Shown in pieces: positions 1-4,346 of a DNA stretch of 4,346 bases. Source of the DNA: a virus (Duplodnaviria > Heunggongvirae > Uroviricota > Caudoviricetes). Below the pieces are notes generated by a model that saw nothing but the letters and a program-made list of their open reading frames with translations, searched no databases and was not told where the DNA came from. Position 1 is the stretch's first letter; each line of letters begins with the position of its first letter. The translations under genes were made by a program, and so were the position numbers. Location of the stretch: IMG/VR virus record IMGVR_UViG_2681813320_000022, one strand, 5' to 3'.

Positions 1-103
1 GAGTTGATGGCTCATGATGTCCCTCTGGGATGCGCTCCGGATGAATATGATGATCTCATATCAGGAACTTGTTCGCACCTTCCTTAGTTAGTGTGGCTTT
101 TAG

Positions 104-355
104 TCAAGTAAGATGACGTCTTGGTCTCGCTGATGCCTGGCGCTCAATCCAGCGATCAATTTCTTCCAGGTTGTAAAAGCATGGACTGTTATCCCATGGC
201 ATACCGTCATGAGCGACATGCTTATATTCCCTTCCTTCCATAAACGATTTTTCCCGGGCCTTTTTTAACGTACCTTTTTTTATTCCTTTCAGCGCAATTA
301 ACTGCTCTTCGGATACCCATTTGCCGGGAGAGACAATCATGATTACTTCGCTCAT
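104..355 (-). CDS. xis: Excisionase-like small DNA-binding protein (Xis / recombination directionality factor family)
   Basis: 83-codon ORF ending in TGA. From the sixth residue (MIVSPGKWVSEEQL...) the protein aligns by eye with lambda Xis: Trp at position 8, basic helix region, and a GREY motif (MEGREYKHVA versus lambda KDGREYLFHE). It lies directly downstream of the exonuclease gene on the same strand and upstream of a probable int start, the canonical exo-xis-int order. The true start may be the internal ATG at 340..338; both candidate starts have weak purine-rich SD. Confidence 0.6.
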   Translation of the reverse strand: MSEVIMIVSPGKWVSEEQLIALKGIKKGTLKKAREKSFMEGREYKHVAHDGMPWDNSPCFYNLEEIDRWIERQASARPRRHLT

Positions 356-384
356 CGATTTCTTTATCTCTTACATCAGACGAG

Positions 385-416
385 CGCCGGTTGCAGAATA
401 CCAGTCACAACCGGCG
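385..416 (-). repeat. GC-rich inverted repeat (9-bp arms CGCCGGTTG / CAACCGGCG, 14-nt spacer) in the exo-xis intergenic region
   Basis: Arms at 385..393 and 408..416 are exact reverse complements. It sits 12 nt downstream of the exo stop and about 30 nt upstream of the xis start. No U-tract follows on the minus-strand transcript, so it is not a canonical intrinsic terminator. Confidence 0.45.
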
Positions 417-427
417 ACAGTTGAACA

Positions 428-2461
428 TTAAGAATCAGCCTGACTCGGGATCAGTTTTTGCCAGATAACTGAAACGTATTTTGCCTGGTAACGGGCGTCA
501 TCAAGTGCATTATGGCGCTCACCTTCGAATGGAATAGCCGTTCTGGCATCGAAGTCTATGGCTTTCCCCAGCTCAACGATTGTGCGTACATCGCGATCGT
601 TGTAGTAACGCCACGGGCAGGGGATCCCCTGCCGTTCGTATGAACGGCGCAAAATCGTGTTGTCGAAGTTGGCTCCATTTCCCCAAACCTGAACAAAAAA
701 TTCACCGGAGTTTTCGTCGATAAATTCTCGCAATTGTAACAGTGCATCATCTAACGGGATTTCATCGGTCATAATGGCAGATTGCGCTTCGCGTGATTGC
801 TTAAGCCACCATTTAATGGTGTCCCGATCAATGACTCCGCCAGCAGTTTCCAGATCGATAGTCTTACTAAATTCCGGTCCCATATCTCCGGTTTGCGGAT
901 CGAAAAATATTGCACCTATTGAGATGATCGGGGCATCAGGATTTTTTCCCATGGTTTCAAGGTCGATCATTAGATGGTCACACGTCCTGCTGGTGGATGT
1001 GATTTCGTGATGACTGTTCACCTTAATTGGGTGATCTGCCGTCTCGCCAGTTTCATTATCGCTATTGTGATGCTGATTGCCGCCAGTGTTCTCCTTGTGT
1101 GGATGTTCAGCGCCTTCCATTTCCTCCGGATCATCTTCCTGAACTTCAACCTGATACTCTTCATCGAATGTTTCTTGGTATGTTGCGTCGCCCATCACCG
1201 CGCCACAATCAGGGCAGTTGCCGCCGCCGGTCTGACCGCAGGCGGTGCAGACTTTTTCCACTTCCTGTTGCGCTACTGGTTCAGGCTGTTTCGTTTCTGG
1301 CTCGTTTTGTAACGCATTTGGACTGTTTTGTTCCGCTTTTTGGTAGTTCCGTTCCGATTCATGCTGGTTCTGGTTCACAGAATCGCGGGTCTGGAGCCCC
1401 TTAACCCATTTCGGATCATTCGGGTCACTAATCCCTTCAACAAATTCACCACGTGATGCAGCAAGCAACTTATCGGCGTCAGGCTGGCTGATATTGGCTG
1501 CCTGCATAATTTTGTTTACTTCGTCAGCGGTAACTTTTATCGGCTCTGGTTGTTCTGAATCTTCAGCGGTATCTACATTTTGCGGTAAGCCCGTGTATGT
1601 GCCATTTTTTCGGGCAAAATATTCTTCTTTTGTGATTTCAGTGGCGCCAGCAGCCAGTGCCTTATCCAGACCAGAGAGTTTGTTTGCGCGACCGTATTTT
1701 TCTCCGTCCTTATCTGCGAAGAGGAAATAGAACGGCCCCTCACGCTCTACAGATGGTTCAGCTTCCGGCGCGGTTTCATTTTTTGGGATATCAGATACCT
1801 CAGTTTCCACTGCATCAGTTTGTGTTTCTGATGACTGGAGAACATCAACAGTGCCCAGGTCTGTTTCTTCATTCTCAAACACGCCCTTTGTCGTCAGGTA
1901 TTCGCAGATATATTTGTTCAGTGCTACGGGATCTTTGTGAATGTCGATCGGACGCTCACGGACAAGGCCAAAAATAGTTTGGCGGTCGTAGCGAAGGGCA
2001 TCAGGCTGTTTGCGCATTGATGCCGAGATACGCTTCCAGTCTTCGCGGTCGTTGTCGATAACTTCTTTTTTTGCCCAGCGATGGATGCTGCCGTCAATGT
2101 TTCCGGCATCCACATCACTAGGCCAGAGAGCGTAGGCCAGTTCGTCATCCAGTGTTTTCCATGTCTGCTTGTATTCGCGATGAATGGCAGCAATGACCGG
2201 GCTGATTTTTCCTGTTGAATTTTCAGTGTACTGTTGATTGGCTCTGGCGCGGGCGAGATCAACAACAGACGTGTATTTTCCGGTTTCCTTGCGTTCACCT
2301 TCGCGACGTTTTTTCCAGATGCGCATCTCTGCCTGAATTTCGGGCCATTTAGCACCAGGAATACATTTATGCTTAACCCACCCAATGGCGTGCAACTTAA
2401 GCTCCGGATACGGGTTATTCCCCTCTGAACAGGCGCGTAAGGACTGGCAAAACGCCCGCAA
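428..2461 (-). CDS. Prophage exonuclease: C-terminal DnaQ-like DEDDh 3'-5' exonuclease domain, central CxxC-x7-CxxC zinc ribbon, acidic/His-rich linker, N-terminal domain of unknown function
   Basis: Uninterrupted 677-codon frame ending in TAA at 430..428. All DEDDh motifs are present in order: Exo I MIDLET (D500/E502, nt 956..964), Exo II VWGNGANFD (D600, nt 662..664), Exo III HNALDD (H650 nt 512..514, D655 nt 497..499). Zinc ribbon CTACGQTGGGNCPDCG at nt 1205..1249. The annotated start at 2461 is TTG; the real start may be internal (TTG at 2395 with GGAG SD, or ATG at 2326), so the 5' end is uncertain. Confidence 0.8.
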   Translation of the reverse strand: MRAFCQSLRACSEGNNPYPELKLHAIGWVKHKCIPGAKWPEIQAEMRIWKKRREGERKETGKYTSVVDLARARANQQYTENSTGKISPVIAAIHREYKQTWKTLDDELAYALWPSDVDAGNIDGSIHRWAKKEVIDNDREDWKRISASMRKQPDALRYDRQTIFGLVRERPIDIHKDPVALNKYICEYLTTKGVFENEETDLGTVDVLQSSETQTDAVETEVSDIPKNETAPEAEPSVEREGPFYFLFADKDGEKYGRANKLSGLDKALAAGATEITKEEYFARKNGTYTGLPQNVDTAEDSEQPEPIKVTADEVNKIMQAANISQPDADKLLAASRGEFVEGISDPNDPKWVKGLQTRDSVNQNQHESERNYQKAEQNSPNALQNEPETKQPEPVAQQEVEKVCTACGQTGGGNCPDCGAVMGDATYQETFDEEYQVEVQEDDPEEMEGAEHPHKENTGGNQHHNSDNETGETADHPIKVNSHHEITSTSRTCDHLMIDLETMGKNPDAPIISIGAIFFDPQTGDMGPEFSKTIDLETAGGVIDRDTIKWWLKQSREAQSAIMTDEIPLDDALLQLREFIDENSGEFFVQVWGNGANFDNTILRRSYERQGIPCPWRYYNDRDVRTIVELGKAIDFDARTAIPFEGERHNALDDARYQAKYVSVIWQKLIPSQADS

Positions 2462-2480
2462 AAAACTCTCGAGGGCAAAG

Positions 2481-2651
2481 GTGAAGAAACCTGCTGTGGT
2501 TGATCCGGACCTTATCTGGTCATCACCTGACGGAGAAATACGTCGCTACGACAGTCGCCTAAACATAATCTGTCGCGAGTGCCGGAAGAGCGAAGTTATG
2601 CAGCGCATACTGGCTTTCTATCAGGGTAATTTTCAGGACGTGGCGCAGTGA
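2481..2651 (+). CDS. Small hypothetical protein (57 aa from GTG; frame is open back to ATG 2385, which would give 88 aa)
   Basis: GTG at 2481 is preceded by GAGGG (2471..2475) with a 5-nt spacer. The TGA stop (2649..2651) overlaps the GTG start of the next ORF (GTGA at 2648..2651), a translational-coupling arrangement. The ATG at 2385 lacks an SD and would overlap the 5' end of the exo frame on the opposite strand. Confidence 0.4.
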   Translation: MKKPAVVDPDLIWSSPDGEIRRYDSRLNIICRECRKSEVMQRILAFYQGNFQDVAQ

Positions 2652-3004
2652 GTGCACCGGCAACCATTCTTGATATGTGCTGTGGCAGCCGCATGTTCTG
2701 GTTCGATAAGTCTGACGAACGGGCGATATTCAGCGATATCAGAAAAGAAGGATACACATTACGCAATGGGAGACGCTTGATTATCAGCCCTGACATTATC
2801 GCAGATTTTCGTGCATTATCATTTGCAGACGCATCTTTTTCGATGGTTGTATTAGACCCTCCGCATCTTGAGAGTGTTGGTGATAACGCCTGGATGGGAA
2901 AGAAATATGGACGGCTGAATAAAGATGCCTGGCGTGATGATTCGCGACAGAGATTTAAAGAAGCCTTTCGGGTGTTGAGGCCGCACGGCGTTCTGATTTT
3001 TTAA
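2648..3004 (+). CDS. SAM-dependent DNA methyltransferase-like protein (motif I then motif IV, gamma-like order), short and probably truncated or interrupted
   Basis: 118-codon ORF with motif I-like ILDMCCGS (nt about 2669..2692), catalytic motif IV DPPH (nt 2855..2866) about 60 aa later, and a RVLRPHGVLIF strand typical of the Rossmann methyltransferase fold. It stops at TAA 3002..3004, after which the same frame is open for 29 more codons to TAA 3092..3094. No C-terminal target-recognition region is present. Confidence 0.55.
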   Translation: MSAPATILDMCCGSRMFWFDKSDERAIFSDIRKEGYTLRNGRRLIISPDIIADFRALSFADASFSMVVLDPPHLESVGDNAWMGKKYGRLNKDAWRDDSRQRFKEAFRVLRPHGVLIF

Positions 3005-3237
3005 TGGAATGAAACGCAAATACCGGTAAGCCAGATTCTGGCACTGACAGACAGAAAACCTGTTATCTGTCAACGAACAGGGAAAAAACGATAAAACCCA
3101 CTGGATTATTTTTATGAAAGAGGCATCCAGTGAGTAGATTCGTAAGGCTACAGATACGTATATCTGAATAATTAAATTCAGTTCTGTAAATAAAATTTAA
3201 TCCTTAACCGGATGGATTTCTGCACCCTCAGAACATC

Positions 3238-3266
3238 AGGAGGCCGCCCGAAAGGGCGGTAGTGAA
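3238..3266 (+). promoter_or_regulatory. Structured ribosome-binding site: AGGAGG, then a 6-bp GC stem with GAAA tetraloop, then 7 nt to the ATG
   Basis: AGGAGG at 3238..3243; stem CCGCCC (3244..3249) / GGGCGG (3254..3259) with GAAA loop (3250..3253); ATG at 3267. Linear SD-to-ATG spacing is 23 nt; with the hairpin folded it is about 7 nt. Confidence 0.45.
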
Positions 3267-3377
3267 ATGCGAAAGTTCAAAATTATTATTGAAACGGGAA
3301 TAGCTGGTGGAGATTTTGAGGATGTATTCGAAGTGGACGATGACGCAACACCTGAGGAAATTCATGACGGAGCATAA
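3267..3377 (+). CDS. Small acidic protein, 36 aa (MRKFKIIIETGIAGGDFEDVFEVDDDATPEEIHDGA)
   Basis: ATG start served by the structured RBS above; TAA at 3375..3377. Eleven of 36 residues are Asp/Glu. The frame stays open for 23 further codons after the TAA, up to TGA 3447..3449. Confidence 0.4.
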   Translation: MRKFKIIIETGIAGGDFEDVFEVDDDATPEEIHDGA

Positions 3378-3441
3378 GAAATTTTCTTTAACTACTGCAA
3401 TTACTCATACCACGAAATAAAAGACGATGAGGAAGAACAAA

Positions 3442-3618
3442 GTGGCTGATTTTTGTTCAGCTAAATATAACATCAGTTTTGAAGAGCGGGATGAACTATT
3501 AATGGACTATGGTGAGTTACGCGGTGGAAGTGCTGCTGATGTCGAATCCTAGCGTGATGACTATGAAGCGGGAAAAACTCCGGTCGAAGCATATTGTGAT
3601 GAGTGGGGCGATGAATGA
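3442..3618 (+). pseudogene. Small acidic ORF with an in-frame TAG at 3550..3552: 36 codons from GTG 3442 (41 from ATG 3427), then 22 open codons to a TGA that overlaps the next start
   Basis: GTG 3442 is preceded by GAGGAAG with a 6-nt spacer. After the TAG the frame has no stop and no internal start for 22 codons and ends in an ATGA overlap with the ATG at 3615. This is either a nonsense-interrupted gene or a 36-41 aa gene followed by a chance open frame. Confidence 0.3.
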
Positions 3619-3902
3619 GCGAGATTAATTATCAGGAAGGGCATGAAACGGCGGGGCAAGCAAAACCAGTGGCATGGCGATATCGCTACGTGAAAAAAGG
3701 CGTTACGGACTTTCAGGGGAAGTAGTGGTCTGGTGACTGGAAATATGTACCGAAAAAAGAGGATTGTAACGACAGGCCGAACTATCAAATTCAGGCCTTA
3801 TTCACTGCCTCACCAGTCCCAGTTACATCAGAAGAACTGGTTAAAGCTGTGCACTTTTATGAACAACTAAAACGCGAAAATCCACCAACATCCGGCAACT
3901 AG
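3615..3902 (+). pseudogene. Hypothetical protein gene with an in-frame amber at 3723..3725 (36 codons, TAG, then 58 open codons to TAG 3900..3902)
   Basis: ATG 3615 overlaps the upstream TGA (ATGA). The 58 codons after the TAG have no in-frame ATG, GTG or TTG. They read as ordinary mixed protein (WSGDWKYVPKKEDCNDRPNYQIQALF...), whereas the alternative frame ORF at 3745..3870 is Lys/Arg-rich as expected for an out-of-frame read. Confidence 0.4.
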
Positions 3903-4145
3903 ATTAATGGATTAACTATGTCGGTTAAACGACCAGCCAACTGAAAAAGCGGAAACCTGATTACAGGTTGCCAGATAAGGCAATGAGCTACCTGGCGCGG
4001 AACGGACTGATAAGTATGGGGAATGTTTTACGATGAACCTTTAGACTAAAGAGTTTGTAACGCTATGTAAGTGATTTTTTCTGGTTTAGATATTTATATG
4101 TCCGGCCAAATTGAGGTGTGTTTAAATGTAATTGCACATTGATTG

Positions 4146-4152
4146 TAGGAGG
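4146..4152 (+). promoter_or_regulatory. Strong Shine-Dalgarno (TAGGAGG) for the ORF starting at 4157
   Basis: TAGGAGG at 4146..4152, 4-nt spacer, ATG at 4157..4159. Confidence 0.5.
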
Positions 4153-4156
4153 AATA

Positions 4157-4252
4157 ATGAAAAACGCATTGCAGTTTTTGTTTGTTGCGTTCTGGTTGTT
4201 CGCATCATGTATGCCCATCATCTTCACAGCGGTAATGACTCCAACTTATTGA
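4157..4252 (+). pseudogene. 5' fragment of a gene encoding a protein with a hydrophobic N-terminus (MKNALQFLFVAFWLFASCMPIIFTA), disrupted by IS1 insertion
   Basis: Strong SD plus ATG. The first 24-25 codons (4157..4230) are host or prophage sequence; from 4231 the frame continues into the IS1 terminal inverted repeat and stops at TGA 4250..4252 inside IS1, so the native 3' portion is displaced. Confidence 0.45.
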
Positions 4253-4346
4253 TAGTGTTTTATGTTCAGATAATGCCCGATGACTTTGTCATGCAGCTCC
4301 ACCGATTTTGAGAACGACAGCGACTTCCGTCCCAGCCGTGCCAGGT
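4231..4346 (-). mobile_element. IS1 insertion sequence, right-end inverted repeat plus 3' part of insB (partial; continues beyond the window)
   Basis: 4231..4253 GGTAATGACTCCAACTTATTGAT is the IS1 terminal inverted repeat. The following 93 nt match, from memory of the well-known IS1 sequence, the reverse complement of the IS1 right end (...CTGCATGACAAAGTCATCGGGCATTATCTGAACATAAAACACTATCAATAAGTTGGAGTCATTACC). Confidence 0.9.
4246..4346 (-). CDS. insB: IS1 transposase InsB, C-terminal end (partial; 5' part lies outside the window)
   Basis: The minus-strand reading ends ...[29 protein letters not shown] with its TAA stop at 4248..4246 inside the terminal inverted repeat, as in canonical IS1. Confidence 0.8.

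Follow-up and report, generated by a model that had tools for sequence, protein, structure and literature searches.

An in-frame amber codon in a decayed phrog_660 gene of a defective Escherichia coli prophage

Prophage setting and neighbouring genes

The window comprised the whole 4,346-nucleotide stretch of one Caudoviricetes record (IMG/VR IMGVR_UViG_2681813320_000022) and was numbered from its first letter, 5' to 3'. Positions 81-4230 were 100% identical to many E. coli chromosomes, in which this sequence forms a defective prophage adjoining rspB. The gene order of the prophage was integrase, excisionase, 3'-5' exonuclease, DUF977, methyltransferase, DUF7167 (annotated 'internal stop') and the pseudogene at 3615-4036 that is the subject of this report. 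Coordinates of the individual features are given in Table 1. The left end of the window (1-87) was 100% identical to the end of the IS5-like element ISKpn26, and the right end, from 4231 (4231-4346), was the end of IS1A. Both insertions together were found in none of the best 25 complete E. coli genome matches. The IS1 insertion cuts a small hydrophobic ORF starting at 4159; in locus L002 this ORF is 72 aa long (ORF list), or approximately 59 aa when counted from the ATG equivalent to 4159.

At 2385-2461 the exonuclease and DUF977 genes, both truncated, meet head to head. The junction is a deletion scar: what once lay there, namely the immunity, promoter and replication region of the prophage, is gone. 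The region is probably poorly transcribed, because the same deletion will have removed the native rightward promoter along with the immunity and replication functions. A promoter scan of positions 2300-4346 returned 4 candidates against 3.7 expected, which is the chance level, and a terminator scan of the same positions gave none that was convincing near the gene. A G+C-rich hairpin (GCCGCCC-GAAA-GGGCGG) is present at 3244-3261, in the gap after the methyltransferase gene and directly 5' of the DUF7167 start at 3267. It has no T-run and was not reported by the terminator scan. The window was also searched against Rfam, and no family was found.

Stop codons were present in the neighbouring genes as well (Table 1). 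The first of the two methyltransferase stops, at 3002, is AAA in 9 homologs, and the 3' part of this gene is annotated 'frameshifted; internal stop' in locus L216. In some genomes PGAP gives the first 118 methyltransferase codons as an intact protein (WP_001310834.1). The DUF7167 and phrog_519 genes are intact in the approximately 93%-identical lambdoid prophages L002 and L003, and the phrog_660 gene of these two prophages, homologous to 3615-4036, already carries the TAG together with an A8 run. The phrog_660 gene had therefore died before the prophage in the window became defective.

Decay was simulated in a simple way for DUF7167, phrog_519 and the gene under study up to position 3884, by putting as many substitutions as had been observed onto the nearest intact sequences. 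Three stops were observed in the three small genes, against 1.1-2.1 expected (P=0.09-0.35), so that their density is that which neutral decay gives.

Table 1. Features of the window and of the interrupted gene
Feature	Position	Strand	Basis or remark
3'-5' exonuclease gene, N-terminally truncated	428-2419	minus
DUF977 gene, N-terminally truncated	2400-2651	plus
SAM-dependent methyltransferase gene	2648..3133	+	in-frame TAA at 3002-3004 and 3092-3094
DUF7167 gene	3267..3449	+	in-frame TAA at 3375-3377, AAA in 160 homologs; PGAP 'internal stop'
phrog_519 gene, start GTG 3442	3442..3618	+	in-frame TAG at 3550-3552, TGG in 161 homologs
Whole pseudogene, decayed phrog_660 gene (intact form 171 codons)	3615..4036	+	PGAP span and DNA alignment to L104, L067, L135 and L116
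First 36 codons, in frame with the canonical ATG	3615..3722	+	MSEINYQEGHETAGQAKPVAWRYRYVKKGVTDFQGK matches N-termini of intact homologs
A6 run (Lys-Lys), ancestral length	3693..3698	+	indel hot spot in TAG-carrying relatives
Nonsense codon 1 (amber), context TAG-T	3723..3725	+	sense codon in relatives
58 former coding codons, still open	3726..3899	+	conserved core WxGDWKYVPxKEDCNDRPxYEIQALF...
Junction of 90-bp (30-codon) in-frame deletion between AATCCRCCAG direct repeats, removing VETGAWKDAVDWVLKEACCAAILGKADNPP	3879..3888	+	alignment to intact genes
Nonsense codon 2 (TAG)	3900..3902	+	68 homologs have CAG, among them the L092 type, which is otherwise nearly identical
4-bp deletion (TGGT in intact genes), frameshifting	3933..3934	+	alignment to intact genes

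The interrupted frame and its intact relatives

The ATG at 3615 overlaps the preceding TGA as ATGA. The frame that it opens is interrupted after 36 codons by the TAG at 3723-3725 and then remains open for a further 58 codons, up to the TAG at 3900-3902. All of these features had been described in a sequence-only reading of the window and were present as described. That reading also held that the downstream part contains no internal start, which was nearly right: the sole in-frame start-like codon 3' of the amber is the GTG at 3849, 17 codons short of the end. The probability of 58 open codons, previously put at about 0.06, was recomputed with the real base composition or with shuffles and came out slightly lower, at 0.03-0.045. 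The bare pattern, defined as at least 30 open codons, one stop and at least 55 open codons, was met 11 times across the window's six frames, so the open-frame statistic is by itself no evidence.

The through-frame was considered real because of its homology, namely a contiguous match to the phrog_660 profile (aa 2-93 against profile positions 34-118 of 193, E=2.3e-28) and an alignment to intact phage proteins. Intact relatives are single uninterrupted proteins of 119-171 aa, which align end to end with the through-frame. They include URC08893.1 of phage vB_EcoS-689R5 (119 aa), XBA92513.1 (gp20 of vB_Apl-pPE4), VUD37832.1 of mEp460_4F5 (155 aa) and AII27664.1 of Av-05 (128 aa); the 171-aa form was found in IMG/VR contigs such as L104 and L067. 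Residues at the amber site in these homologs are Q, P, L or M, and the Trp codon (TGG) that follows the site is invariant in those aligned. Searches of Pfam, NCBIfam and PDB sequences with the intact 171-aa protein gave no meaningful relative, the best PDB matches being designed proteins aligned over a low-complexity stretch. The gene in the window is a member of an uncharacterised accessory family of lambdoid phages.

The record named 'Actinobacillus phage vB_Apl-pPE4' carries an E. coli lambdoid gene module, and its protein is 89% identical to that of 689R5 and about 80-83% identical to the window through-frame. Short contigs in Segatella copri and Collinsella sp. MAGs encode a protein 100% identical to the 689R5 homolog and are probably misbinned. 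These records are L090, L091 (both genome_contigs) and L006.

The two open stretches could also be read as two independent small genes, one of 36 codons and another that restarts past the TAG. Nothing beyond the stretches themselves speaks for this arrangement. It is refuted by the homolog alignment, in which the relatives form one continuous protein across the site, and the only start-like in-frame codon past the TAG is the GTG mentioned above; we consider it vanishingly improbable. Homologous loci encode one protein and not two, and the frame downstream of the TAG is conserved at the protein level. Both results fit the pseudogene reading.

The frame had also been said to look otherwise intact, and this claim failed. 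Relatives carry CAG at 3900, so that the presumed natural stop of the frame is a second nonsense codon, and this codon is flanked by the 90-bp and 4-bp deletions. Past the 4-bp deletion the ancestral C-terminus, TSQLKKRKPDYRLPDKAMSYLARNGLISMGNVLR, lies in the +2 frame (3932-4033) and runs to the ancestral stop, TGA at 4034-4036. Counting the amber, the window copy has at least four disabling lesions. PGAP already gives the gene an identical extent: it annotates a pseudogene labelled 'hypothetical protein; frameshifted; internal stop' in three genomes (L001, 4416-4837; L215, 5035-5456; L216, 6235-6656), and all three spans correspond exactly to window 3615-4036. Both the span and the label are reproduced by the +2-frame C-terminus ending at the TGA.

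Alleles at the amber site

An earlier scan of the viral collection with the intact protein had returned intact-type genes only, owing to match ranking. It was replaced by a scan with a DNA pattern in which the codon at the site was unspecified, to guard against ranking bias, and this gave 120 phage contigs. A protein-alignment scan of genome contigs returned only 5 loci, two of them probably misbinned MAG contigs, and was of little use for allele counts. Codons at the amber site in the 120 contigs were CCG (42), TAG (37), CAG (18), TTG (11), ATG (8), TGG (2) and CTG (2). The sequence-only reading had asked whether relatives carry CAG, TGG or TAG at this site; all three were found, together with CCG, TTG, ATG and CTG. 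A sense codon, for Q, P, L, M or W, was present in 83 of the 120 contigs, and TAG in 31%. Since the sense codon stands within homologs that are single proteins, the TAG at 3723 is a nonsense mutation in one gene.

A single origin of the TAG alleles is indicated by the sequence signature common to them all, WSGDW...PKKEDC...TSEELVKAVHFYEQLKRENPP. TAG is one transition away from CAG and one from TGG. CAG is carried by phage 689R5, the most similar intact homolog at the protein level, and by L171, the closest at the DNA level; the TGG carriers L116 and L149 share the flanking substitutions of the TAG clade. As far as these sequences go, either CAG or TGG may have been the ancestral codon.

The two TGG carriers (IMG/VR 2872180393_000005 and 2896595138_000001) have neither the 90-bp nor the 4-bp deletion. 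Their sole lesion is an A8 run in the region homologous to window 3615-3760, and the site reads GTGAAAAAAAAGG. With this run the slippery heptamer A_AAA_AAG comes to lie in phase with the canonical ATG, and slippage by -1 there would yield an uninterrupted protein of 172 aa. An ORF of 152 aa also starts from an internal ATG. The gene in these two contigs could be expressed by programmed frameshifting or transcriptional slippage, or it could be a plain frameshift pseudogene.

Every TAG allele sampled (37, among the 120 contigs) carries the 90-bp deletion. In 21 of these alleles the second TAG and the 4-bp deletion are also present; in 15 others this segment is missing through a 57-bp deletion. 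ATG-to-TAG spacing in the TAG alleles was 107, 108, 109 or 110 nt. The 71 scorable intact-type alleles with the canonical MSEIN start all have 108 nt between the ATG and the site, like the window. On the TAG background the A-run may be lengthened to A7 or A8 or have a 1-nt deletion next to it, in some cases on a recombinant haplotype, and as a result just 13 of the 37 TAG alleles retain the ATG in frame with the TAG, this frame being lost in the other 24. The frame downstream of the stop is lost in all TAG carriers. Indel variants at positions homologous to 3693-3698 were seen in L002, L003, L009, L093 and L105. In phage record ON470612 the frameshifted 85-aa ORF is given as a CDS (L009, 1501-1758), which is an annotation artefact.

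Polymorphism downstream of the stop was counted in the TAG clade and gave a pN/pS of 0.37 (5 synonymous and 7 nonsynonymous changes), compared with 0.31 for intact alleles. Many of these variants occur in the intact alleles too, probably through recombination. The overall ratio does not discriminate on 12 changes, and the count was therefore restricted to variants private to the clade. These comprised 1 synonymous and 6 nonsynonymous changes after the stop (4 nonsynonymous when the insertion junction is left out), against a neutral site ratio of 3.8:1, counts too small for significance. Private variants fall on R54, P55 and E58, which are invariant in the intact family; the window copy itself carries E58Q. 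The private changes are about at the neutral ratio and would be compatible with relaxed constraint, in numbers too small for proof.

Readthrough, persistence and decay

The sequence-only reading offered, as its alternative, a full product made only with amber suppression or readthrough. Readthrough at TAG 3723 might be programmed or leaky, leaving the gene functional at a reduced level. This alternative would account for 58 codons that stay open past the stop and encode the conserved core of the family, and for a crude downstream pN/pS below 1 (0.37). The product of such readthrough would, however, reach the second TAG at 3900 and then the frameshift, and it would be without the 30 conserved residues removed by the 90-bp deletion. 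The frame from ATG to TAG is gone in 24 of 37 carriers, and the stop is limited to one clade, with a sense codon elsewhere. No tRNA was found in the window, and no tRNA with a CTA anticodon was found in the 43 TAG-carrying loci (392 kb in total), whose tRNAs are of the Met/Ile-type CAT, Arg, Lys, Thr, Gly and Ser types only. The stop is followed by T, and U after a stop reportedly makes a strong termination context in E. coli (Poole et al. 1995); TAG-T would accordingly be expected to terminate efficiently. Belinky et al. (PMC7918605) hold that many bacterial in-frame stops are read through, but their own criterion leaves out genes with frameshifts or long deletions. Taken with these points, the readthrough alternative was judged very improbable.

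Two further readings were rejected. In-frame stops of the region are mixed, with TAA standing for Lys (twice), TAG for Trp and TAG for Gln or Trp; a mixture of TAA and TAG that replaces Lys, Trp and Gln is no consistent reassignment of a stop codon. Sequencing error was rejected on account of the identical allele in 925 genomes.

The exact 54-mer around the TAG was present in 925 of 5426 complete E. coli genomes (approximately 17%), and the exact TGG version of this 54-mer had no copy in them. E. coli ATCC 8739 is an implied carrier, from a single-mismatch match to the TGG version. At such a frequency the mutation is neither recent nor specific to one strain. The allele persists because the gene is dispensable, through vertical inheritance with the defective prophage and exchange among lambdoid phages.

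A frequency of this order could point to tolerance of the broken state, or even to selection for it, if the intact protein harms the lysogen so that the null spreads, or if the 36-residue N-terminal peptide has gained a function. The allele is common, both in the complete genomes and in the phage contigs (37 of 120); it occurs also in complete-looking prophages with intact neighbouring genes, and no exact copy of the clade's TGG form was found in the complete E. coli genomes. Intact alleles are nonetheless commoner overall (83 of 120), and two things inflate the frequency: a single defective prophage is inherited vertically, and the allele hitch-hikes in a mosaic region that is dispensable. 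A functional peptide is further opposed by destruction of the 36-codon frame itself in 24 of 37 carriers. Selection of the broken state was considered highly unlikely. There is a similarly slight chance that a null phrog_660 allele is favoured in lysogens (e.g. if the intact protein burdens the host), or that some activity survives in the 36-residue fragment or through trace readthrough. An advantage of the null, if true, would explain why about 17% of complete E. coli genomes carry a multiply broken copy, and why prophages with intact neighbouring genes carry one too.

We conclude that 3615-4036 is almost certainly an ordinary multi-lesion pseudogene of a phage accessory gene in a decayed E. 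coli prophage. The amber at 3723 is a simple nonsense mutation, of the kind that a single transition in CAG or TGG produces. Translation, if there is any, would end there and leave a 36-residue fragment of no expected function, and the 58 open codons past it are leftover coding sequence that has yet to gain another stop. We infer that no functional product is made from 3615-4036. A nonsense pseudogene in a decaying prophage had been the other proposal of the sequence-only reading, and this part of it stands, given the sense codons in 83 of 120 relatives, the three further lesions, the stops in neighbouring genes and the PGAP label; its description of the mutation as recent does not, given the 925 of 5426 genomes.

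The locus is already annotated as a pseudogene in RefSeq, and what is added here is the identity of the individual lesions and their distribution among relatives. The biological weight of the result is small, the decay being routine and the accessory gene in this defective prophage dispensable. For method, a long open stretch past an in-frame stop is the look of a fairly young pseudogene, and what looks like the natural end of the frame may turn out to be a nonsense codon as well. Intact homologs should therefore be compared over the full ancestral length before readthrough is invoked.

Comparison with known systems

In stop-codon-recoded phages TAG is read as an amino acid via a phage-encoded suppressor tRNA, and classical amber suppression uses supE-type tRNAs. 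The window has only one point in common with these systems, a TAG inside a phage reading frame. It differs from recoded phages in that neither the window nor the TAG-carrying loci have a suppressor tRNA or a consistent reassignment.

In-frame stops were held by Belinky et al. 2021 (PMC7918605) to be poor markers of pseudogenes only where there is no other degradation, such as frameshifts or long deletions, and mobilome genes, in which such stops are commonest, were held often to be true pseudogenes. The gene in the window resembles their cases in its orthologous TAG/CAG polymorphism across many genomes and in its mobilome category. Their proposal supposes purifying selection and no other degradation, whereas the window gene has lost 30 codons to a deletion and carries a further stop and a frameshift, and most carriers have lost the frame.

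Intact phrog_660 proteins are 68-81% identical in amino-acid sequence to the window copy across the shared region, with the core AWRYRYV...WxGDWKYVPxKEDCNDRPxYEIQALF in common. They are uninterrupted and keep the C-terminal part, whereas in the window copy this part is lost or shifted. The setting, with IS insertions, truncated genes and pseudogene neighbours, is typical of prophage decay, which is described in Bobay, Touchon & Rocha 2014, as cited in PMC7918605. The closest counterparts are the nonsense and frameshift pseudogenes of defective E. coli lambdoid prophages annotated by PGAP (for example CXV43_RS25330, V5099_RS10700 and AC6I0E_RS00295), which have the same locus, the same span and the same diagnosis, and from which the window copy differs in nothing material.
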